A DNA stretch of 56,864 nucleotides, the filler included, from Basidiobolus ranarum (Eukaryota), in assembly GCA_040143965.1 (NCBI GenBank). It is 6 parts of 6 records of this genome, joined end to end, with 100 filler letters (N's around TTAATTAATTAA, not from the genome) between each part and the next. Parts side by side here need not be neighbours in the genome. Positions count along the whole stretch, not along the records: positions 1 to 9,413 come from JASJQH010000829.1; 5 more parts are not named here. One strand, given 5' to 3'. This document shows positions 1 to 27,612 of this stretch, piece after piece. The notes beneath the pieces were generated by a model, which made no database searches, was not told the DNA's origin, and saw only the letters and a program-made list of their open reading frames with translations. Made by a program: the position numbers and the translations under genes. The stretch's first letter is position 1. The number at the start of each line of letters is the position of its first letter.

Positions 1-959
1 TGATTATTCCTTATCTCAAACGGACGATTAAAGCCTTCAAGACTCTGCTACCATGCTAGAACCCCCAGTACATCAGTCTCATCAATTTGCTGACAGCGGA
101 TTAGCACCAACAAATGATATTAGCTCGGAATCTATTACTACGGAAATGTTAGACCAATTAATTCGACAAGTGACACCACCAACACCACAATCACATATTT
201 CTACGTCGCCCAGCCAGGAGCCTGGACTGACCTTATTTATGTCCTCCGGATTTCCTACCCAAGTTACACCCATCGTGCCAACTACTCAAACTCATTAAGT
301 TCAAGTTGAGAAAGGCTGATAGGTATTTGACTTCTTCAGTCACTTATCACCAACTTAATGTACATAACTTCAAGTGACAGCTAGTCCATTTCGTCTTCTT
401 AAAAGGTGTTTAAAGCCATCAGATCCCCGAAGATAGTTCAAAACTGATCAGCGTTTATTTCTCCTTATGTTCGCCGAAAATATAGAGTATTGATTTCATC
501 CTTGTTGACCAGTATAAGAATTCAACTTTTTAGTCGGGCCAGTTCTCCCCTGTACAATACGGATAACATCCTTGTTTCCCTACAGACATATCTTTATCCA
601 GTCTACCCACTTTTCCATCTCACAGTATACACATCTGCCGATCTGAACGGTCAGGGCATGTTTTTCTATAGCGAAGTTTGAATATTATATTTGGATGGTT
701 GATACCCCCTCCCCATTGTAAGTTTCTATACTAAATATTTATACCAGTCGGATATCCAACCCATTTTGCGAAGCCATTTCTCGTTAATATCGGAATAAAA
801 TTATACCAGAACACCGCCGCGCGGTTGCTTCTATTACCTAGAGTCTGTCTTTGTGTCAAATCATTAGTGAAAGGATTAATTGAGATGGGATTACGCTGTA
901 TTAAATTAAATTCAGAGGAGCTAATAGGGTTTACCAACATAGCGAACCAGCTTTCGTTT

Positions 960-1950
960 AATTGCTGACAACTTCGGGCAAATAGTGCAACACTTGTTTA
1001 TCCATCCCCATCCCCATTTCAGCATTTATTCACCTCCAAGTATTCCAACCTAACCTTCCCCGGTGTAGTTAAACGAAACATGTATATGAGTATAGAAATG
1101 ATATACATAATTGTACTCTGTGCCCTCCTGTGTTTCACTAACCAATCCACACCAAGTTACTAGAAGTACATCAAACCCTTTCGGGATGTTTCAAAACTAA
1201 ACAGGAAATAGAAAGTGGGTTAGTTCAAGTAGGAGGATCGTAAAAAATCCCCTCCCCTCTCCTCTCCCTCCCCCACTTGCAACGAATTGTTTCATACACA
1301 AGTAGCGCCATCGAAATCCGCGTGGAAGAGTGCTTTTGGCTAAATTGGAGGGAGTATGAGGGATTCTGGACGATTGACCGAATTAATATTCATTCCTCTC
1401 CCCCAATAGCAACATATTATATATTTGCTTTATTAAATTGACTCATCCATCTATTATTAATTTCACGTACTTGAATTTCGTTCTTGCCAAGAAATAGTGA
1501 TACTCCCCAACTATCCAGTCTAGTTAGGTATCATTCCCATTGTAGATGTCCATCCGTTTTAGGAGGCATCCAAGGTTTAGGTTGGCCCTCGAATGGTTGC
1601 CGGTGATCCAACGGATTCTTACGGAAAGATAGGGAATGTCATCCCACTCCTCGTAGAGAGGGTGATCCTAATATCTAACACAAATGATATTGTATCATGG
1701 TGACATTTATAGGAGGGAATCATCCATGCATATGGAGTTGGCTAGACAGTATTCGTATTATTCTTCAGATCTTAGGGCTCGGATACCTCGGAGTTTCACC
1801 AAAAGTCTATCAACAGAATAAAAATATCTAGCTGATTGGAGGTGTTGGGGTGAAGTAGAGTGGAGAAGGAACTTTCAATTTGTCATGTTCCATACTGATT
1901 TCTACCTTTTGTGATTGAACAAGGTTGACTGAAATTTCAAACATCCGAGC
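960..1950 (+). ncRNA. Candidate large structured non-coding RNA of unknown class
   Basis: No long ORF. Colinear nested complementary segments read by eye: 988-1000/1916-1927, 1031-1039/1836-1844, 1123-1132/1708-1717, 1224-1231/1468-1475, 1264-1271/1347-1354, 1532-1538/1632-1638, 1552-1558/1610-1616. G-U pairs mostly favour the + strand. Boundaries are approximate. Confidence 0.35.
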
Positions 1951-3061
1951 ATCTCACTGTAACAAACAATGAGCTTCTGTTGGCTCAGATATCAACAAAA
2001 TATTGCTGCAATGTATAGTCCTGGAGTTAGCATTTACCCTGTTCCCGAAGCCAGGCAGGTCATTGTTTGTACAAGTGAAATCCTTCCTGAAACTCAAAAT
2101 TGCCTCACTCACACTTGGATGATTACATGTCCTCCTTTGTTAAACGCCGCAGAGAAATCCATGTGGAGTTTCTTGAACATTCAAGGCGAAGAAAAGTTGT
2201 AAGCCTCCAGATGCGGTGGGGACGGATTAATTAAGTACGTAGACCCAGATAGGAGGTTGCTCTACTCATACAGGCCTATTTTCAACACATGCTCGTACTT
2301 GAGATATCTCAATTCTAATACTCAGTGTTTGAGGATATAACGTATCCTACAAAGAGTAACTCTAGCATGGTAGGAATCGCTATGCATTCGGATCTAGCTC
2401 AATGCTGATCCTAATAAAGTCATGTTACAAACTTCAAAATCTAGACAATGTGTTGCTATCTATAAAAACATGCGACCTACGTAAAACAATATGAAAAAGA
2501 TCACCGTCTGTACCTTTCGTTGCCGTCGATTTCATGTTCCTAACTATCACTGGAGCATACTCATATGTACAGAGGGCAAACAAACATGGTAGGATACCTT
2601 GAATATGGACAAGATTCGACTGAATAGAAGCACGTTTGATCCTAGGTAACGAAAAAACAACTGAAATCCATCAAATACCTAAAGATCGATCGTGAACTGG
2701 CTAGTATTCATGTTTGATAGTGTGGGATGTTTCAAGTGCAACGCTATACACCCAAATTCAGTAAGCCATTTCAATCTTACTTCAGCATGTAATCGAAAAT
2801 CAACGATGTGGTCAAAATCAAATCTCGTCCTCTCCTACCTACAACCTCTTGCATATCGTACATAAGAAACATTCAGTCGATCTTCACATGAGAAAGAAAG
2901 CCTCGTATATATAGCGATGTTACGCTTCGAGACTGCCATATTCTTGTAAATAAAGTGGCAGTTCGAACCTCAACCAATCTTCTATTACTAACTAATTGAC
3001 TCTTCATAACTGTACATTCGTCACCATCAAGTGATAATTCCCAGTAGCCTTTCTTAGTCAG

Positions 3062-4612
3062 ATGTGGTTTCGTACTGTGTTCGCTCATAAGAAAGAATAT
3101 CCTTCAAAGATTTCCGAAGAGAGAGAAGATTCTGCTCATGTGGACGTTGAATCGAGAGAGGATCAGACGTCGACTGATAGTCTCACCAAAGAGACTCAAA
3201 GTATTGTAGAAAAGGTAAACAGCCTCAGCGAAGGTTCGGGGAAAACGGTATTATCTAATCTGATATCATTGAATTTCTGGAACGGCAAAAGGGACAAGAG
3301 CCCCAACATATCTACGAGTTTATATAATTCTCACAATGGGCTAAGAGGGAGGAAGATAGACGAGGTGTCTAAAAATATACTAAATAATATGGCGGATGTC
3401 ATCATCAAACAAGACTACTTGATTCTTCTGGCTCAATGTTTTGCTTGCTTCGGATCACCGGAACATCGCCTTGAAGACAATATGATGATTGCTTCTGCAG
3501 CTCTCGACATCCAGAGTTCTTTCGCTTTTCTTCCTGGATTAATCCTGGCATCATTCGAAAAGGAGGATATGCGCACTAGCGATACGTACCTGGTTGTAGT
3601 AAATGAGAGTAGATACATGGATAGGCTGGAAAAGTGTTTGATAGTTTCCCAGCAAGTCGGACAAGGAACATTACCAGTCAAGGAAGGATACCAAATATTA
3701 AGTACTTTATATAAGAATCAGAAATACTACCCAGAGTGGAGTGAAATAGTCAGTTACGGTCTGTACTCTTTCTTCTCATGTTCACTATCGTACGGGGGTG
3801 GGATTCAAGACTGGATAGTTAGCGGCTTTCTTGGCTTAATAGTAGGTGTATTACGTAGATTTTCAAAAAATATTTACACATACGACAGTATACTAGAAAT
3901 ATCAGCTGGTTTCCTGGTTTCCATCATTTCTACCTCTCTCCATGCGCACGTATGCTATGTTGCTGTGATGCTATCTGGAGTTACTAAGCTGGTCCCAGGA
4001 TATGCTATTGCGGTGTCAATCCTTGACTTGGCTGCTCAAAACATTGTATCTGGTACATTGAGACTTCTTTACAATATATCACTTTCGTTTATTTTGGCTT
4101 TTGGTTTGTCATTTGGTTCTTCGGTATATCAGAATATTGGAGTAATTCCCATCGAGCATCCCCAGTGCCACAAGATGAACCCTCTTTGGATCCTGATTAC
4201 TTTTCCTATGGCTAGTATTTGCTCGGCAGTAATGAATCATGCTTCACCCAGACAATTGCCAGCTATCATCGGTTTGAGTAGTATTGGTTACATAAGTTAT
4301 TACTTCTTGTCCCGATTATTGAACCCTGGTGTAGCAACTGCAATCGCTGCCTTCAATCTAGCCTTGTGCGGGAATATTTTTACTTTGGTAACAGGAAAGA
4401 TAGGATTACCAGGCATTCTTAATGGGGTAGCTCTGTTGGTGCCAGGTGGACTTGGGGTTAGAGGAATTTTTGAGATCATTGTAGAGTCAAGTCACGGTCT
4501 TGAGCTTGCATTGCAAATGTTTAGAATTTGCATATGTCTTGCCTTTGGCTTATTTTTAGGATCTTTGGTCTTATCACCTAGTACAAGGAAGCATCCGTAT
4601 CCAACCATCTAA
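3062..4612 (+). CDS. PRM10-like ThrE/DUF1212 family multi-pass membrane protein (putative threonine/serine exporter family)
   Basis: Intronless 516-aa ORF. 'LAQCFACFGSPEHRLED' and 'FAFLPGLILASF' match the Prm10 N-terminal domain. About 10 hydrophobic segments follow, with 'LVPGY' and 'LVPGGLG' motifs. Confidence 0.85.
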   Translation: MWFRTVFAHKKEYPSKISEEREDSAHVDVESREDQTSTDSLTKETQSIVEKVNSLSEGSGKTVLSNLISLNFWNGKRDKSPNISTSLYNSHNGLRGRKIDEVSKNILNNMADVIIKQDYLILLAQCFACFGSPEHRLEDNMMIASAALDIQSSFAFLPGLILASFEKEDMRTSDTYLVVVNESRYMDRLEKCLIVSQQVGQGTLPVKEGYQILSTLYKNQKYYPEWSEIVSYGLYSFFSCSLSYGGGIQDWIVSGFLGLIVGVLRRFSKNIYTYDSILEISAGFLVSIISTSLHAHVCYVAVMLSGVTKLVPGYAIAVSILDLAAQNIVSGTLRLLYNISLSFILAFGLSFGSSVYQNIGVIPIEHPQCHKMNPLWILITFPMASICSAVMNHASPRQLPAIIGLSSIGYISYYFLSRLLNPGVATAIAAFNLALCGNIFTLVTGKIGLPGILNGVALLVPGGLGVRGIFEIIVESSHGLELALQMFRICICLAFGLFLGSLVLSPSTRKHPYPTI

Positions 4613-5904
4613 ACCCAACCAATTGTATCTCACTATCTGACACTTTATACCACTTCCTGCTTTGAAGAATCCTATCTGTTAGTAGGTATGTGTCCAATTC
4701 TCAAAGTGGCTGTCATATTGACTGTATTAAAATTCACTGCAAACATTGAATCTTGCCTATATTATCAAATGATGTCTACTGTATGGATTTCGGAGCATAC
4801 TTCATAAAGGCTTGCTGAGTACACACTCGATTATGAAGCAAGAGTGCCAAGAGAAGCATTCAAATATCAGTCTACACTTAAGCCTGAACAAATCGAAACA
4901 GTACAGCGATGCATTATGAGTAGTACTATATGCTGTCTATTCGCGATATTTTGCCGAGCATGCTGCTAAGTGTACAATGCGTTTCATCTGTGGTGCTCTT
5001 ACATCCACACTAAACCTAACTCTACAACTCTTATCTATCTCGTGTGTGCCCAATTAATATTTGATGTATCAACACTGAAAACGCTTTAATCATAGCCTTG
5101 TCGCAATCGCTTGGCTGCTGATAATCCCCTTGATATATGAACATGTTCTCCTAGTATGGTAGTTTGCTAATGACGGATCCCCTCCATTGAAGCAGTCCTT
5201 AAGGTAGTGACAACCGGGATATCTCACTGACGCTTTTTTCTCCGATATTATTGTGCATCGAGTTATCCCCGTTAATGCTACTACAGCTGTGATTAATATT
5301 CATATGACTTCCATCCGAATGAAAAGCCAATTCTAAGATCAGACCCCCTAGTAAAAACTGCAGACATAGAACGAATCACATGCTGGAATTATATTTCGCC
5401 AACCATAAATCGTTGATTAGTCATGAGTAGATGATGCCTTTTCGAGGGCTGTGGGGTTAATACCATTATATTAACAGCTTAGGCAGAATATCTAAGCGAG
5501 TTGTAGATACGTCAACTGTCTTGGTGTGTAATGTTAACCTAGTCCCTGCCGAATACTGAACAACAAGAAAGGATAAATCCCGAATAGATGTGATTTCCAT
5601 GCCGTGGTGGTAATACAGGAAATCCTCAGGAGATACCATCTCGGTTTTGATGGTTTGCATGCTCCTACATTCAATATTTATTCATTTGTGGTATATACAG
5701 TATCTCTAATCCACAAGTTCGATTGTGCCGCCTAGCGTGCTCTCCGTCAATAGGGAGAGAGTGTGGGTAGGCATGCATATACTCCATTGCGGAGGAGTAG
5801 GCGACAGTGTGCATAAGTAAAAGAAAGGAGATGTCGCCAACTTGATACACTAGCATACTCATGTAGTGAATAAGTGAAATCTTGTTTCTCAAAAATAATC
5901 AGTC

Positions 5905-8258
5905 TTGACTCCCCTAGTAAACATGATTCAGGTCACTCTCCTGCAACGTAGCTACATTCAATCAGCTGGCCCAGATTCCGTAAATGAGGCTGGTTTTCGT
6001 ATTTTCGGTAGAAACAAAACACTTATAAGAATAGTTGGCCTACTCTCTCAAGATGAAATAATTATGTTCGGGAACCCATTGGATGCTGTAATCCCAGATG
6101 AAGTGAACAGAAACAATCAAGATCTCGCAGATATAGCTACCATTCACAGGGAATCAGAGTTCCTTGACCAGCATAGAGAATTCAAGGATGAACATAAACT
6201 TTTAGAGTCTCAGGTTGGTAAGATTACACCAGAATTATCTTCGATAGTCAATTCTTTATCAAAGAATAATACAGGAAAATTATCTTCAATGAGCCTTTCT
6301 TCCAACGATAATATCAACAGTGTTAAGAATGCCAATATTGTCAAAAAGGACGCAATTGATGAACATCCGACTGTCAACTGCGATAACAATGACCTTTCAA
6401 AATATATGAATCCCAATCACAAGACCATAGTTAAGACTCTACAGCAGGTGTCTGCTGCATCTGCGGCGCCAACATCAACACCAGTATCACTGCCTAAAAA
6501 GTTTCTATGGATATCTACTGTGTTGGTGTCCCTATTGTTGATTTATCTTACTCCACTTCCGCCTTGGCTGCCGAAGTCTTTTCAACTGGGTGCTCGTGAG
6601 ATTTCGATTTCCTATGCTATCCTAATATTTACCAATGCCTTTACTATCACCACCTTTGCGCTCAACCGCCGTAATATCGAAAAGCGCCGGCGTAACCGTG
6701 GAACTAGATGGAAGGGAATGACCACCGCTGTACTAGCAGTCGGCTACCGAGAGGATCCCATCGTATTGGAAGGTTGTCTAAGGTCAATCAAAGCTTTGAC
6801 CTATCATCTGAATCGCAAAGTATTGTTGATTATCGACGGTGATGAGAAACAGGACGAATATATGGCCGACATTTTCATGAACGTCTTTGAGAGCCATAAT
6901 CCATTGATACTCAGGCCATGCTTCGTGGTTGCAGATGTCGGAAAGGATCATCTATTAACTTCAAAACTAAAACAACGAATAGCGGACGCCAGAGGCCCAG
7001 TCTGTATCTTACAGCCTCACCGGGGTAAGCGTGAGGCCATGTATACCGGGTTTGCTGCCTTACTTGACAGCGGTATTGAGGGTGTCGTAGTGACGGATTC
7101 AGATACGTTTTTGGACCCAAAATCCGTTCAAGGTAATTGCCATGGAATTCCACATTCTCAGTTCATGTATACACGTCCTTAACGTTGTTTCCCATCACAC
7201 ACATATTATATTTAGAACTCGCTTTCTGTGTTTCCGAATCGCCAAATATCGGTGCAGCCACTGGCGATGTGCGCATATACAACACCGGCACTTGGATAAG
7301 CTTCCTGTCTTCGTTATGGTACTGGTTTGCGTTTAATCTGGAGAGAAGTTCGCAATCATATCACGGGGTGGTAAACTGTGTGAGTGGTCCACTAGGTCTT
7401 TACAGGATGACAGTCATTCGCAAAATTATGGACCAATGGAAGCAGCAATCGTTCATGGGTGTCAAATGTACATATGGAGATGATCGCCACTTGACTAACC
7501 TTGTACTCAGCCATGGGATGAAGGTCAAGTTTACGCATCATGCTATCTGCTATACCGACACACCCATGACATTTGTTTCTTGGTTTATGCAGCAAACTCG
7601 TTGGGCGAAATCTTTCTTTAGAGAAATCCCCATCCAGTTGGCTTGTATGCATCGCCATAGCCCTTACATGACGCTGGCATTGATCTATCACGTAGTCTAC
7701 CCACTTCTCATAGTCTATAACATTCTTGAGTGCATCTACATCGGCACCATTGTCCATGTGATATGGCAGAGTGGCTGGCTGGTTATGCTCGGTTCAATTA
7801 AGGCAATGTTTGCTGTCGCGGTCACTGGCGAGATAAAATTCTTCTTCTACCCTATTTATAGTGGCCTTTATCTCATTGGCCACCTGCCCACCAAGTTATT
7901 CGCACTATTCACACTCTACAACAATAGCTGGGGGACTAATGCGAGATTGTTCCGCGGTTTTACAAGATATCAAAATTATCTGCCGCCCATCGTATGGTGT
8001 CTATTTCTCCTTAATGGTGCAATTCAGATATTCATTCGTTCGTTATCCGATCTAAAATCACAGACCAACTCCGACCCAGTAACTGTAATAGTGTTGTTGG
8101 TGCTAATTCTAGTATACGCATTGGTGTACTACTTTGTATTTCACACATCCGGTGTTATGAAGAGCGTATATATACGGAATTATGGATATGAGGAGATATG
8201 TCGTAATACAAAGATGTCGGAAAATGCAATACAAGCTGCTCGTAGAGAAGCCAGCTAA
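5905..8258 (+). CDS. Class I hyaluronan synthase-like processive GT2 glycosyltransferase (2 exons, intron 7133-7215; true start uncertain)
   Basis: Removing GT..AG 7133-7215 joins ORFs 5905-7182 and 7137-8258 in frame (DSDTFLDPKSVQ|ELAFCV). Motifs GYREDP, IIDGDE, QPHRGKREAMYTGF, TDSDT, FNLERSSQS, CVSGPLGLYR, CTYGDDRHLTN, QQTRWAKSFFRE and WGT occur in HAS order. There are 2 N-terminal and several C-terminal TM segments. Confidence 0.9.
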
Positions 8259-8495
8259 TCTACGCTTACAGAATTTTCTGATATCGTTACAGTACCGGCG
8301 CCATTTTCGATATACATATATATATATTCCACCAGTTGGATATTTCAATTCTGAATAAATATATAGATCAAGAAAAGTCTTCCTTATTATTCTATACTTG
8401 AATTTCTGCAGTGGAACTGCGAGCAAATATCATGGTGAGACTACTAGCTTTGTTGTAGCATCAGCAGTTGCTATAGTAGATTGTGAAGTACTAAC

Positions 8496-8843
8496 TGTTA
8501 AAGTATTTGTAAGCCTGTTGGAAGTGGTTTGGAGAATTAGAGGAATTGGTGGTTTTCACTTATTGATTTATTGAGTTGAAAGTTGACATTTATAGTTTTG
8601 TCAAGATGTAAACAAACTAACATGTAGAATATGTTAAGGAAGGTCCCAGGAATATGTGTGCAAAGCTTGGGGCTTCTAGCACAAGTTTGAAAAATCTATA
8701 TATCTGAGAACTTCTAAGTTGGTAAAAATATTTGAAGTAAATTCCAATTGAGAATAATGGATAATATCTTGGTGAATTATTAGATAACTAAGTACTAAGC
8801 TATATATGACTAAATATGTGTATAGGCAATGCTAATTTCAACA
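8496..8843 (-). mobile_element. 3' LTR of a Ty1/copia retrotransposon (~350 bp, TGTTG...TAACA)
   Basis: On the minus strand it starts TGTTG right after a polypurine tract (TGAGGGAGAG, 8844-8853) that follows RNase H. Homologous copies lie at 17734-18019, 19022-19132 and 19776-19930. Confidence 0.85.
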
Positions 8844-8854
8844 CTCTCCCTCAA

Positions 8855-9302
8855 CTAAATAGTCATATAAGCTAATCCTAATAAAGGTCTAAATTTCTCA
8901 AATTTCTGTTTAGCTAATGGTTTGGTTAACATATCAGCAATCATGTCTTCTGTAGAACAATAAGCTAAGTCAATAAACTTATTCTCTATAGTATCTCTAA
9001 TGAAGTGATGCTTAATATCTATACTTTTGCTTCTATTATGAAATGTATGATTTTTAGCTAATTTGATACAACTTTGATTATCTTGAAATATTGTAGTTGG
9101 TGAATTTTAAGAATAATCTAAATCTGTTAAGAGTTTTCTGAACCATACTGCCTCTTTTGTTGCTCCACAGGCAGCCATGTATTCTGCTTCTGTTGTTGAA
9201 TGTGCTACAGTAGGTTGTTTCTTTGAATTCCAACAAATAGCTCCATTACAGCAAAGAAATAAGTATCCTGCTGTAGATCTCCTGTCTTCAATATCTCTTC
9301 CC
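8855..9302 (-). pseudogene. Ty1/copia RNase H remnant with an in-frame stop
   Basis: Translation DRRSTAGYLF...WNSKKQPTVAHSTTEAEYMAA...(stop at 9107-9109)...IFQDNQSCIKLA...SIDIKHHFIR...MIADMLTKPL carries canonical copia RNase H motifs. Confidence 0.92.
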
Positions 9303-9413
9303 TGTTGAAGTTTATTGTCTTTATCATATTTGTTATCTTTATCTTTATACACCTAACTATTTCATATATCACATATAAGTTAGTTAACATTACTTAGTCA
9401 AATATCACTTAGC
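9303..9413. mobile_element. Possible terminus of a second LTR element nested in the copia pol gene
   Basis: Copia homology stops abruptly at 9302. The adjoining AT-rich sequence begins TGTTGAAG, an LTR-type terminus, and runs to the contig end. Confidence 0.4.
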
Positions 9414-9513
9414 NNNNNNNNNNNNNNNNNNNNNNNNNNNNNNNNNNNNNNNNNNNNTTAATTAATTAANNNNNNNNNNNNNNNNNNNNNNNNNNNNNNN
9501 NNNNNNNNNNNNN
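9414..9513. other. Artificial contig-joining spacer
   Basis: N44-TTAATTAATTAA-N44, a stop-codon linker. Confidence 0.99.
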
Positions 9514-9620
9514 GAGAACGTGGAAATTAGTCTAGAAATAGGATAGGTTTTTCCTATCATCGTTCATTAATTTTGACATCCAATTGAGCTTAAATATATA
9601 CGGGCTGAGGAAAGCGTATA

Positions 9621-10521
9621 ATGTGGGAAGAACATACTGGTGACCTAAGTACTCGCACATCTCCTTTTATGCTGAATCTTTACAAGTAAATGTTGTTTCT
9701 TTCTCCTCCATTTATATACTCTTTGATGTTTTTTTGCTAATATATTTCATACTCTAGAATATCATCAGAAAAATACTACTCTGACATGATAGCTTGGAAA
9801 CGGTCTGGTACCAGATTTACCATCAAAGACCGCATCAACTTTACCTCCAAAGTACTTCCTAAATACTACAAGTATAATAGGCTTGCTTCATTCTCCCGTC
9901 AATTAAGAGTAAGTAGTGATATTAAGGCTCTAAACTAAGGAGATAAATCTTTAGCCTTTCCAATAGATCTATGGTTTCTATCGAGCTTCTTACCAGCGAA
10001 GGAAGAAGGAAGGCAAGAATGCATCTGCGCTAACCTTTGCGCACCCATATTTCAAGCGAGATAAAATTCATTCTTTTCATCTCATCCAGCGCATGTCTGG
10101 TTCTTATAATCAATCAAGAGTGAAACTTTCTAACTTTCGAGTAAATACAGTCACAAAGTCAATATCTGACTTCTCCTCCACTTCACCCGCACTCTCTTTA
10201 TCTCCACTCATGAAATCACAGCCTGTAAGCCGCCATAACGGAGAGTCAAAACATACGGTAGTTCCGGATCACGCCTTTCCGGATTATACGCTTCTTACGC
10301 AGGAAGAAATAAACCCAAACAAAAGTATTGAGTTTTGTAACTCAATATTACACGAACCATTGATCCTTGAGGGAGTGAATTTCACTAATTGTCCAGATCT
10401 CTCGTCTCTAGATATATCGGTATCTCTATATTCGTCCTCAACTTCATCTTTCTCTTGGGAAACAATTTCCTCGAGTCTATATGAAAATCTTTTTTCTAAT
10501 AACAATTACAACCACTACTAG
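9621..10521 (+). CDS. HSF-type DNA-binding domain protein, copy A (exons 9621-9685, 9758-9908, 9967-10521; 256 aa)
   Basis: The spliced frame is open: SPFMLNLYK...MIAWKRSGTRFTIKD...VLPKYYKYNRLASFSRQLRIYGFYR...FAHPYFKRD, an HSF winged-helix pattern. Both introns are canonical GT-AG. Confidence 0.85.
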
Positions 10522-25257: not shown

Positions 25258-25785
25258 GTATTCCCTTTAATAGGATAGATATAGTTTATTCACCTAGTTT
25301 ACGAATATCCACCACGATATCAACGCAATATCAATTTGTAATATGATCTCTTCAATATTAAATGTATAAATAACTTCATATTAATTAACCCGCGTGCTTT
25401 GCATGTATCAGATAAACTTTATGCAATCGAGATATCACTTGGAATTATTATACTATCTAATAAATTAGGTAATGGAATAAATTAAAATTCATCCAGCGTG
25501 ATATCATATATCATAAGGCAAACCTTAAAGTGATCAGTTGTATTACAGCCCGAATTGGTTTATTGAATATGATATAATATATGCTGTGAATATTCCTGTA
25601 GAAAAATCGCTCCTTTTTGCGCCAAAAACCATTTTAGCAATATCCCGTTATATCTCGTAATATTCACCTATGGAGATACAAACCTTGTGGCGTGTGTAGA
25701 AGTAGGTTCTATATAAGAGCGTAGAATAATCCTCTCTACTATGTCTGGCCATTTCAAATTAACCCATCCATACGAAACATAAAGA

Positions 25786-27612
25786 ATGAAACTTTCGAAC
25801 TTGGCTTCTGCCGTTGTATTGCTATCTTTATGCTCTTCCGAATTAGTAGAGTCTCGCAGGCTTACTAAACGCGATGAACAACAAAGTCGTAATAGTGGTA
25901 TCCCAGATAGTCCTCGTATTACTCCTCCGGGGCCGTTAGCAACAGGATCATATACTGCTCCAGAAAAACCCAAATACGACTACTCTGAAGTCTTACACAA
26001 ATCACAAATCTTTTATCATAGTCAAAGGTCCGGAAAACTTCCCTACCAACGATTGGCATGGCGTTCCGATTCATGTGTAGATTGCAAAGGAGAGTATGGT
26101 GAGGATCTAAGTGGAGCATGGTATGAAGCAGCAAACACCATGAAATGGTCTCAACCATTAGGTTTTACCATCATGCAATTGGCTTTCAATATATTGGCAT
26201 TTGGTGATGCTATGGAATCCGTCAACGAAAAGACTGAAGCTATGGAAAACCTCAAATGGGGTACCGATTACTTAATTAACGCTCATCCTACTCCACTTGC
26301 TTTTGTGGCCCAATTGGGTACCTCTGCTATAGGTTCAACTGATATAGATTTCGGCTATTTTGGACCACCAGAGTTTTATGATCAATATGTTCCTCTCGGA
26401 ATCAAGCGTACCGCCTTCTACGTCACTCCTGAGAATCCCTCCTCAGAAATTCTTGGCATTGCCTCAGCCGCTATGGCCGCTTCATCTATGGTGTTCAAAG
26501 AGTCTAATCCTGATTATGCCAAGACTCTACTTGAACATGCAGCTCAGCTATACAAATTTGGTACAACTCATCAAGGAACCTTCATGGCCTCCAATAATAG
26601 TAACTGGACTACCGTTAAGGAATGGTATCCTTCCACCAACTGGAAAGATGAGCTTGCTTTAGCTGCTACTTTCCTTTACCAAGCTACCGACGATAAAACC
26701 TATCTTGACGAGGGTATAAAATGGTATGATGCTGCTAACACCGGAGGTTACGAATGGTCATGGGATGATCAAGAAAATGCTTGTCACGTTCTCTTATATC
26801 ACATCACTAAACAGGATGTTTATAAGCAGAATGCTCGTAAATTCTTTGATGCTTGGCTTCCTGGCCCCCAGCAAACTGTAAAGCAGTCTCCGCGCGGTCT
26901 CTCTTACATTGAGAAATGGGGTTCATTATCTTATTCGGCCAATGTTGCTTTCGCAATGATTTACCATGCCAAAGATCTCGGTTATGATGACCCATACTCT
27001 CAAAAACTTTTAAATCATGCTACTCAACAGATGAACTACATCTTGGGTGATTGTGGTAAATCCTGGGTAGTTGGATTCGGTAACGATTCTCCTCAGAGAC
27101 CTTATCATAAATCCAGTTACAATTCCTATATCGATTATCCCATGAGGGGTCAATCACAGGGTGCAGTAGGCAATGATTTCTTGAATAGTATGACCAAGAA
27201 TCGCTTCATTCTTTATGGAGCTTTAGTTGGTGGTCCTGATACTGATGATTCATACTTTGATGATCGTAACAATTATGTTTACACTGAGGTCACGCAGGAT
27301 TATAACGCTGGCTTCCAAGGTGCATTGGCTGGATTGATCGATTGGTATGGGTCTTCCAACTTCCAAGCCTTTACTGATTGCAATTTAGATCTTGGTTGGA
27401 GTCATCCTAATGTTACGGCTAAACAACCAAAATACCCCGAGGACGATTGTTATCATACTTGTAACACAAATTGCGGGAACAAGAATGATTCTCCGTCAGT
27501 ATCCACCAATAATGACTCTGAGAAACCTGATACAAGTGACGCTAACTCAATACTGTTTGGAGGCATATTAATTGGTCTTACTGGGCTCTCGACCCTGTTC
27601 TTTACAATTTAG
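25786..27612 (+). CDS. Glycoside hydrolase family 9 protein, secreted and probably GPI-anchored
   Basis: Intronless 608 aa with an N-terminal signal peptide. Motifs FYHSQRSGKLP, WRSDS, DLSGAWYEAAN, KWGTDYL, QMNYILG, LYGALVGGP and TEVTQDYNAG. A Ser/Asp/Asn-rich linker leads to a hydrophobic C-terminus. Confidence 0.93.
   Translation: MKLSNLASAVVLLSLCSSELVESRRLTKRDEQQSRNSGIPDSPRITPPGPLATGSYTAPEKPKYDYSEVLHKSQIFYHSQRSGKLPYQRLAWRSDSCVDCKGEYGEDLSGAWYEAANTMKWSQPLGFTIMQLAFNILAFGDAMESVNEKTEAMENLKWGTDYLINAHPTPLAFVAQLGTSAIGSTDIDFGYFGPPEFYDQYVPLGIKRTAFYVTPENPSSEILGIASAAMAASSMVFKESNPDYAKTLLEHAAQLYKFGTTHQGTFMASNNSNWTTVKEWYPSTNWKDELALAATFLYQATDDKTYLDEGIKWYDAANTGGYEWSWDDQENACHVLLYHITKQDVYKQNARKFFDAWLPGPQQTVKQSPRGLSYIEKWGSLSYSANVAFAMIYHAKDLGYDDPYSQKLLNHATQQMNYILGDCGKSWVVGFGNDSPQRPYHKSSYNSYIDYPMRGQSQGAVGNDFLNSMTKNRFILYGALVGGPDTDDSYFDDRNNYVYTEVTQDYNAGFQGALAGLIDWYGSSNFQAFTDCNLDLGWSHPNVTAKQPKYPEDDCYHTCNTNCGNKNDSPSVSTNNDSEKPDTSDANSILFGGILIGLTGLSTLFFTI

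Follow-up and report, generated by a model that had tools for sequence, protein, structure and literature searches.

The stretch of DNA analyzed here (the window; 56,864 nucleotides, filler included) comes from the fungus Basidiobolus ranarum and is composed of six parts from six records of assembly GCA_040143965.1, which are joined end to end and need not be neighbors in the genome. The gene under study is located on part 1 (positions 1-9,413, JASJQH010000829.1), where two exons at 5923-8258 on the + strand encode a protein of 750 amino acids. Residues 191-734 of the product are predicted, from sequence and from a structural model, to constitute a six-helix enzyme of the class I hyaluronan synthase (HAS) type, belonging to glycosyltransferase family 2 (GT2).

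A two-exon gene encoding a GT2 protein

The coding region is covered by two open frames on the + strand, 5899-7182 in one frame and 7137-8258 in another. An in-frame TAA (5896-5898) precedes the ATG at 5923, the sequence GTAATTG is found at 7133, a TTTAG ends at 7215 with a YTNAY-like CTTAAC around 30 nt upstream of its AG (7214-7215), and the stop codon TAA is at 8256-8258. Splicing at these sites yields a coding sequence of 2253 nt, and its translation is letter for letter identical to the NCBI entry "hypothetical protein K7432_011122 [Basidiobolus ranarum]" (P0003). The junction created by intron removal aligned without gaps to 12 homologs. The model of a spliced GT2 gene with a predicted intron at 7133-7215, as proposed in the initial annotation, is thus confirmed and agrees with the deposited one. 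The gene is composed of the following parts:

5923..7132, + strand: exon 1, codons 1-403 and the first base of codon 404, encoding the N-terminal tail, the first two transmembrane helices (TM1 and TM2) and the first half of the GT-A domain
7133..7215, + strand: predicted spliceosomal intron of 83 nt, GT..AG, phase 1, GTAATTGC...ATATTTAG; the exon 1 frame runs into a stop codon at 7180-7182
7216..8258, + strand: exon 2, the rest of codon 404, codons 405-750 and the TAA, encoding the second half of the GT-A domain, the interface helices, TM3-TM6 and the C-terminal tail

Sequence and predicted fold of the encoded protein

When compared to all chains in the PDB, exon 2 was most similar to HAS1 from Xenopus laevis (PDB 8smm/8smn/8smp; E 8.3e-61), with the chlorovirus enzyme CvHAS (PDB 7sp6 and others) at E 4.9e-44, and exon 1 was most similar to CvHAS (E 1.9e-23, 86 bits; residues 244-401 aligned to CvHAS 61-211), with Xenopus HAS1 at E 8.5e-13 (51 bits). 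Both searches returned HAS chains only (5 of 5 distinct sequences each), and no chitin synthase chain reached E 0.01 with either exon as query. The uneven scores of exon 1 can be attributed to an insertion in the N-terminal half of the vertebrate enzymes, located in the first half of the GT domain and absent from the B. ranarum protein. All HAS motifs quoted in the initial annotation were found: GYREDP, IDGDE, LQPHRGKRE..YTGF and KCTYGDDR are identical in the solved CvHAS, and SGPLG.YR, GDDRHLTN and QQTRW.KS.FRE are identical in Xenopus HAS1. The similarity to vertebrate HAS1-3 further includes the W-G-T-x-x-R spacing of the gating loop, and identity to a monotreme HAS1 is 38% over 433 residues. 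A histidine of the uracil-binding pocket (His366) is shared with CvHAS, whereas most metazoan sequences (6 of 8) carry tryptophan at this position; the arginine corresponding to Xenopus HAS1 Arg287 is replaced by Trp438 in the B. ranarum protein. CvHAS differs in its gating loop (WGTRG, compared to WGTNAR in the query) and in having GDDRR instead of GDDRH.

Scanning the protein against Pfam gave generic GT2 models and a weak match to Chitin_synth_2 (49 bits), and no match to Chitin_synth_1. The best NCBIfam model was that of NodC (TIGR04242; residues 344-643), at 179.9 bits and below its cut-off of 550. The same model scores the monotreme HAS1 at 165 bits and a chlorovirus-type HAS at 147 bits. 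NodC shares the GT2 core motifs with the query, is around 395 residues long and presumably lacks the last two transmembrane helices.

An AlphaFold2 model was built from a 48-sequence alignment (predicted template modeling score, pTM, 0.75) and had a predicted local distance difference test (pLDDT) value of 85-98 over residues ~190-730. In a Foldseek search of the PDB, the 13 best matches were all Xenopus HAS1 or CvHAS (E 2e-33 to 2e-28), with target-normalized TM-scores of 0.80-0.82 and 0.85-0.89, respectively. The next matches were bacterial cellulose synthase (E 3e-12, TM-score 0.41) and chitin synthases (E ~3e-11, TM-score 0.27-0.39). The ESM Atlas model superimposed on a chordate HAS2 cluster with TM-scores of 0.88/0.89 over 534 residues and on a Nucleocytoviricota cluster with 0.87/0.88; ascomycete clusters named "Hyaluronan synthase 2" were also structural neighbors of it (TM-score 0.83), and no Pezizomycotina protein was present among the "longer" sequence matches listed.

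Fungal chitin synthases, including the chlorovirus-like "CV" or class VIII enzymes (Chs8), are likewise processive GT2 enzymes with a channel. The signature of divisions 1 and 2 is QxFEY/EDR/QRRRW (PMC12653383). An identity as a classical fungal chitin synthase does not fit the sequence, since GDDR and QQTRW stand in place of EDR and QRRRW, the Chitin_synth_2 match is weak and the TM-scores to chitin synthases are low, in agreement with the initial annotation. Genes for CV-class chitin synthases are reported to cluster with a gene for a UDP-GlcNAc (N-acetylglucosamine) 6-dehydrogenase and with one for a chitin deacetylase (PMC5122149, PMC7053769), and the first of these papers, on chitin synthase classification, includes HAS merely as an outgroup. 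No dehydrogenase gene of such a cluster was found in the window, where chitin deacetylase was not specifically searched for.

Six hydropathy segments were identified (194-212, 229-247, 556-586, 592-610, 659-680 and 694-712), and the predicted arrangement of two N-terminal and four C-terminal transmembrane helices, with three interface helices around a single GT-A domain, is that of the viral and vertebrate HAS enzymes. The hydrophilic tail and the helices are encoded as follows:

5923..6501, + strand: residues 1-193, tail preceding TM1, with candidate start codons at Met 1, 48, 123 and 162
6502..6663, + strand: TM1 (194-212) and TM2 (229-247), Kyte-Doolittle peaks 2.11 and 1.63, model helices 190-209 and 224-246
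7671..7835, + strand: TM3 and TM4 (556-610), from hydropathy, including mid-channel K599 (Xenopus HAS1 K448), model helices 553-579 and 582-607
7980..8141, + strand: TM5 (659-680) and TM6 (694-712), from hydropathy, model helices 654-682 and 691-713

The tail of around 190 residues has no counterpart in the vertebrate enzymes. Its polar fraction is 0.64, compared to 0.49 for the rest of the protein, and its pLDDT is mostly below 60. A conserved domain was sought in it and rejected: the Pfam scan gave no domain, only the protein itself was matched among proteins of 412-1313 amino acids, and no usable ESM Atlas neighbor was obtained (TM-score ≤0.41). Homologs have N-terminal tails that resemble neither one another nor that of the query. 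The deposited model of the B. ranarum paralog P0097 begins at the place of residue ~175, which is also where similarity between the paralogs starts. The N-terminal extension noted in the initial annotation is therefore present in the deposited model, but it is without relatives and modeled with low confidence; if translated, it is most likely a disordered, lineage-specific cytosolic appendage.

Phylogenetic placement among HAS-like proteins

Homology searches gave 1842 cluster representatives at E ≤0.001, of which 230 also reached E ≤1e-30, and the closest relatives were assessed from 94 "longer" matches and 120 of 340 "near" matches. Among these listed matches, the closest was the truncated P0097 (71% identity), followed by dozens of proteins from Mortierellomycota with 51-56% identity over the whole exon 2 query (up to 66% over shorter alignments), many of them automatically named "Hyaluronan synthase 3". 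Further matches were from Endogone (48%), Neocallimastigomycota (44-50%) and Chytridiomycota (39-46%), and next came agaricomycetes, lancelets, an annelid and vertebrates at around 40%. Over exon 2, identity is thus 48-56% to Mortierellomycota and Endogone and 39-50% to chytrids and Neocallimastigomycota. At least four HAS-like proteins of B. ranarum itself were among the matches listed (the query P0003, P0097, P0075 and P0079).

For the phylogeny, an alignment of 89 rows was assembled, hand-chosen from the homology matches (30 fungal, 1 aphelid, 8 metazoan, 27 viral and 23 prokaryotic; rows L045 and L064 were left out). Viral contigs had been scanned in three ways: a single protein as query gave one weak locus, an alignment profile gave 31 loci and a degenerate DNA pattern gave 8. 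The profile missed the chlorovirus HAS because the motifs of the latter differ; one of the 8 loci found with the DNA pattern, the chlorovirus-type L116, matches the solved CvHAS with 1225 bits. The 89-row tree was calculated under LG+C20 with posterior mean site frequencies (PMSF) and the Shimodaira-Hasegawa-like approximate likelihood ratio test (SH-aLRT). In a second tree, of 38 rows, branch support was assessed by ultrafast bootstrap as well as SH-aLRT; approximately unbiased (AU) tests were performed on the 38-row set.

The query grouped with P0097 (100/100), the pair with Mortierellomycota (100/100) and these with Endogone (100/100), all within a fungal clade A (99/99) that also includes chytrids and Neocallimastigomycota and whose members share the motifs and the gating loop; across analyses the query was found at 100/100 within a fungal clade of 12-20 rows. 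A second fungal clade, B, comprises B. ranarum P0075 and P0079, a mucoralean, Saitoella and agaricomycetes. The chlorovirus-type HAS sequences (L113, L114 and L116) formed a separate, all-viral clade (100/100). All of these belong to a eukaryote and virus group (100/100) that holds the vertebrate and chlorovirus HAS enzymes and in which six lineages (clades A and B, chordates, Owenia and two viral lineages) are without a resolved branching order, the fungi being united only at 63/60. Trees of single exons gave the same placement, with exon 1 in clade A at 98/100/98 and exon 2 at 99/99/99, and a mosaic of a chlorovirus-like N-terminal half and a vertebrate-like C-terminal half was therefore rejected. 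The gene does nest in a widespread fungal GT2 clade, as the initial annotation had considered possible, but that clade is not one of known non-HA (hyaluronan) activity; as it has no known activity, the proposal that the gene product makes hyaluronan is neither borne out nor refuted by the placement.

Two further placements in the tree were observed. HAS-like genes from a 292-kb contig labeled as a gammaproteobacterial metagenome-assembled genome (L033) and from a 1.6-kb gammaproteobacterial contig (L034) grouped with eukaryotes and giant viruses and not with prokaryotes, and may represent misbinned viral DNA or transfer; the flanking genes in L033 encode a leucyl-tRNA synthetase and an endosialidase-chaperone domain protein. 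Two proteins from the annelid Owenia fusiformis (P0054 and P0055), around 40% identical to the query and with lysine at the channel entrance, formed a long branch near the chordate enzymes (80/77). Judged by these sequences, class I HAS-like genes in animals are not confined to chordates, unless the Owenia pair are contaminants.

Conserved residues and replacement of the channel-entrance arginine

Conservation of at least 90% among the other 87 rows was found in 50 alignment columns. The query keeps the common residue in 49 of these, and most rows show 0-2 departures. The residues kept are Tyr275, Glu277, His366, Lys369, Asp392, Asp394, Tyr439, Phe443, Arg447, Cys458, Cys488, Tyr490, Gly491-Asp-Asp-Arg494, Gln529, Gln530, Arg532, Trp533, Ser536, Arg539, Lys599 (a column with lysine or arginine in 89 of 89 rows) and Trp642-Gly-Thr..Arg647. 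Every HAS residue that we checked as having been mutagenized, or as contacting UDP-GlcA (glucuronic acid), the primer or the gating loop (roles according to PMC12987647 and PMC11750622), is retained with the exception of the residue at position 438; the retained residues include the cysteines of the switch and priming loops. The sites of interest are encoded at:

6745..6753, + strand: Y275-R276-E277 of GYREDP; Y in 78/89 and E in 87/89 rows
7018..7029, + strand: H366-R-G-K369 of LQPHRGKRE; K in 88/89 rows
7096..7104, + strand: D392-S-D394, the DxD motif for metal and diphosphate; both Asp in 89/89 rows
7317..7319, + strand: W438 (TGG) in interface helix 1, equivalent to Xenopus HAS1 R287 at the channel entrance; the sole departure among the 50 conserved columns
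7476..7487, + strand: G491-D-D-R494, the GDDR motif with the catalytic base; 89/89 rows
7590..7604, + strand: Q529-Q-T-R-W533, the QxxRW motif in interface helix 2; Q529, Q530, R532 and W533 in 89/89 rows
7929..7946, + strand: W642-G-T-N-A-R647, gating loop with the vertebrate-type W-G-T-x-x-R spacing, from the alignment; loop role as described in PMC11750622

The CvHAS equivalents of Tyr275 and Glu277 are Tyr91, which lines the uracil pocket, and Glu93, which forms a second metal site, and those of His366 and Lys369 are His174 and Lys177, both in the uracil pocket, with the lysine touching the GlcA carboxylate (PMC12987647).

At the position of Trp438, 85 of the 89 rows have arginine and 2 (both from Owenia) have lysine, tryptophan being found only in the query and its paralog P0097. 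Among 251 relatives bearing the interface helix 1 motif, the counts were 216 R, 31 K, 3 W and 1 G. The conserved arginine of interface helix 1 (R287 in Xenopus HAS1) is thus lost, and the second arginine, equivalent to R296, is kept as Arg447. In Xenopus HAS1, R287 is adjacent to the second sugar of the nascent chain, a GlcA; the R287A variant retained around 15% turnover and produced short oligosaccharides, and R287K gave polydisperse HA (PMC11750622). The third tryptophan was found in a 913-residue protein of Gamsiella multidivaricata (P0015), the only clade A relative outside B. ranarum in which the arginine is not kept. This protein is nested deep inside Mortierellomycota, and a common origin of its tryptophan with that of B. 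ranarum was accordingly rejected; the change from arginine to tryptophan therefore arose at least twice, independently. The loss more probably affects how the chain is gripped and how long it grows than which sugar is chosen. The arginine itself is no marker of HA synthesis, because it is kept in prokaryotic relatives of unknown product, and it is also kept in rows without a neighboring gene for UDP-glucose dehydrogenase (UGDH).

Possible products of the enzyme

Hyaluronan, or an HA-like polymer of GlcNAc and GlcA, is the product that we would tentatively put first, while stopping a little short of calling it probable. Both characterized members of the enclosing eukaryote and virus group make HA, which leans towards the use of GlcA. 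In CvHAS, the GlcA carboxylate is held between two basic residues, and the query has retained both (Lys369 and Arg532). When all 85 flanking open reading frames (ORFs) of at least 200 amino acids were scanned, 3 of 19 viral loci (L002, L003 and L010, all of the chlorovirus-type clade) and 4 of 10 prokaryotic loci (L035, L038, L047 and L085) were found to have a UGDH-family gene beside the HAS-like one. Synthesis of UDP-GlcA is predicted for Entomophthoromycotina including Basidiobolus (PMC8092308), and a study of wall sugars reported glucuronic acid for all of the Mucoromycota that it tested but, of four Zoopagomycota, for B. meristosporus only (PMC11170279).

Several observations weigh against a GlcA-containing product. 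No gene for UGDH or for glutamine:fructose-6-phosphate amidotransferase (GFAT) was found in the window, in which none of 17 scanned ORFs of at least 120 amino acids has a UDPG_MGDP_dh domain and four viral or bacterial dehydrogenases gave a best tblastn E of 0.26, so a HAS-UGDH gene cluster in the window was rejected. None of the 12 scanned loci of the second giant-virus group (including L004) has a UGDH-family neighbor. No conserved residue separates synthesis of HA from that of chitin or chito-oligosaccharides, as the residues are equally kept in the prokaryotic rows of unknown product, and the NodC model scores the query about as it does true HAS enzymes. Vertebrate HAS enzymes have themselves been reported to make chitin oligomers, although a review calls this controversial (PMC10939387). 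Finally, the channel-entrance arginine is replaced by Trp438, and since an alanine variant at this arginine keeps only around 15% of its turnover and gives short oligosaccharides, the enzyme may be slow, non-processive or re-specialized.

The same type of enzyme could instead use UDP-GlcNAc only, making chitin or short chito-oligosaccharides as a wall component or signal and incorporating no GlcA, an alternative that we consider possible but rather unlikely. It would be in line with NodC being the best NCBIfam model, with the absence of a UGDH-family gene from the window, with the sharing of all conserved residues with the prokaryotic relatives, and with the loss of the arginine that is located beside GlcA-2 in the Xenopus HAS1 channel, where a tryptophan would suit stacking against a neutral sugar. 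Chitin is, moreover, the main wall polymer of early-diverging fungi (PMC11170279). However, the NodC score is far below the cut-off and no better than those of true HAS enzymes, the arginine is no GlcA marker, being present also in rows without a UGDH neighbor, the other two GlcA-carboxylate residues are kept, and the characterized members of the enclosing group are HA-producing. The remaining probability lies with other products or inactivity.

Three of the neighborhoods in the flank scan contained other genes of note. On a giant-virus contig (L002:727-6599), the HAS-like gene is accompanied by genes for GFAT (SIS and glutamine amidotransferase domains), an alginate-lyase-family protein, a UDP-glucose-dehydrogenase-family protein and a phosphoglucomutase fragment; judged by gene content, this tight cluster resembles a complete viral pathway that makes, and may also cut, a uronic-acid polymer. 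On another giant-virus contig, a bacteriorhodopsin-like gene (L012:2823-3539, - strand) is located directly beside the HAS-like gene, and in Blastococcus atacamensis a GGDEF-EAL gene (L110:3-2249, - strand) is found upstream of it, which hints at cyclic di-GMP control as in bacterial cellulose synthase.

History and integrity of the gene

The placement, the gene structure and the sequence composition indicate that the gene is long-resident in B. ranarum and a member of a broad fungal branch, not a recent viral import. Descent within fungi may not have been strictly vertical. The 32 Mortierellomycota rows sampled together formed the sister group of the Basidiobolus pair (100), Endogone branching outside both, and a grouping of Mortierellomycota and Endogone without Basidiobolus, as in the species tree, was 38.8 log-likelihood units worse (AU p 0.0076). 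No other Zoopagomycota were present among the "longer" and "near" matches listed. An ancient transfer of the clade A genes between Basidiobolus and the Mortierellomycota stem, in either direction, could explain this pattern, but we regard it as somewhat unlikely: the p value is optimistic because the tested group was chosen after the tree had been seen, the absence of other Zoopagomycota rests on 120 of 340 "near" matches, and the composition of the gene bears no trace of transfer. Furthermore, Mortierellomycota has two paralog groups and Endogone was sampled with a single sequence, so the incongruence is compatible with hidden paralogy as well as with an old transfer between fungi. The placement of Basidiobolus in species trees is also said to be unstable, which weighs against transfer.

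That the gene is a decaying or untranscribed copy without function is very improbable. A near-invariant arginine has been replaced, and a degenerate retroelement-like stretch is located about 600 bp downstream, but 750 codons are open with a clean splice, the single departure in conserved columns is within the range of other rows, and the same R-to-W change is found independently in the Gamsiella ortholog. The paralog shares both the motifs and the tryptophan at 71% identity, from which it follows that the two copies have been constrained since duplication.

The origin suggested in the initial annotation, in a giant virus and with later gain of intron and tail, can be dismissed almost entirely as a recent event, whether the donor was a chlorovirus or another giant virus, because despite the higher score of exon 1 to CvHAS and the relatives on giant-virus contigs, the gene is nested among fungal sequences (48-56% identity, compared to 29-39% to viral ones) even when exon 1 is analyzed separately, forcing the query and P0097 together with the chlorovirus-type clade was 133.7 log-likelihood units worse (AU p 4.3e-5), and codon usage is host-like, a spliceosomal intron is present and the neighboring genes are ordinary fungal ones.

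The GC content of the gene is 0.43, and its relative synonymous codon usage (RSCU) has a cosine of 0.945 to that of eight pooled other ORFs of the window, which among themselves range from 0.86 to 0.95. The other genes of the window are of ordinary fungal kinds, encoding a ThrE-type exporter, a GH9 protein, a WD40 protein, GATA factors, a biotin carboxylase, a kinase and a Fab1-like FYVE protein. The GH9 gene (25783-27612, + strand) is an uninterrupted ORF of 609 amino acids whose glycoside hydrolase family 9 domain is full-length (E 1.4e-109); cellulases of this family are uncommon in fungi. Downstream of the HAS-like gene, at 8855-9352 on the - strand, two adjoining ORFs of 83 and 81 amino acids are split by a stop codon. 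Neither has a Pfam match, and we take them to resemble the C-terminal part of a Ty1/copia-type retrotransposon polyprotein; the pair is probably a degenerate retroelement. In the stretch 8001-10000, GC content drops to 0.315, compared to around 0.40 elsewhere.

Discussion

We favor, with moderate confidence, the reading that this locus is an intact, long-resident B. ranarum gene for a processive class I synthase-translocase of the HAS type, elongating its product at the non-reducing end, as suggested by sequence and model. By analogy with solved relatives, the cytosolic GT-A domain would bind UDP-sugars through the DxD motif and a divalent metal, synthesis would be self-primed with GlcNAc, and sugars would be added at the non-reducing end by the base of the GDDR motif. 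The growing chain would then be pushed through a channel formed by the three interface helices and six transmembrane helices, with the WGTNAR loop as its gate. A GlcNAc-containing beta-glycan would result, tentatively one alternating with glucuronic acid (hyaluronan or HA-like). The tryptophan at the channel entrance probably loosens the grip on the chain and shifts product length, and the disordered tail, if translated, would be an appendage particular to this lineage on the cytosolic side. The bolder proposal, that B. ranarum and many early-diverging fungi make genuine hyaluronan, or short HA chains as a result of the Arg-to-Trp change, by a vertebrate-type class I synthase, is speculative and in our estimation doubtful.

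The family and its mechanism are well known, and the gene and its orthologs are already present in public records, some with automatic HAS names. As described in a 2023 review, class I HAS enzymes acting at the non-reducing end are those of vertebrates and chlorella virus, with CPS1 from Cryptococcus as the sole fungal candidate (PMC10939387). A preprint (bioRxiv 10.64898/2026.02.21.705424) presents Cryptococcus neoformans CPS1 and 68 "putative fungal HAS" as GT2 proteins proposed to make hyaluronan, with DxD, QxxRW-like and WGTR-like motifs; this CPS1p-seeded set is described as having a pore of three transmembrane helices and a disordered C-terminus and as forming a clade apart from animal and viral HAS, and neither Basidiobolus nor Zoopagomycota is named in its main text. 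On that description the B. ranarum protein is set apart from the CPS1 type, as it has six predicted transmembrane helices, two of which follow the gating loop, and groups with animal and viral HAS. In the literature searched, which did not extend to subscription journals, we found no description or tested function of the six-helix fungal clade, and as far as we have seen this branch has not been the subject of a study.

Basidiobolus ranarum inhabits the guts of amphibians and reptiles and occasionally causes human infection. The gene described here represents an intact six-helix HAS homolog of the vertebrate and viral type in a zoopagomycete, and its relatives in clade A span at least five phylum-level groups, with clade B reaching Agaricomycetes. 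This raises the questions of whether fungi other than Cryptococcus produce hyaluronan and of where the vertebrate enzyme originated. The replacement, twice in fungi, of the residue that controls product length in Xenopus HAS1 offers a natural probe of how the product is held. Should the product be chitin-like, the enzyme would be an ordinary extra wall synthase. If, on the other hand, these fungi do make HA, the enzyme type would be no specialty of chordates and chloroviruses but an inheritance of long standing in eukaryotes, or at least in fungi, that has passed between them and giant viruses, and coats of an HA-like kind could then be a common but overlooked feature of fungal surfaces and of host mimicry.

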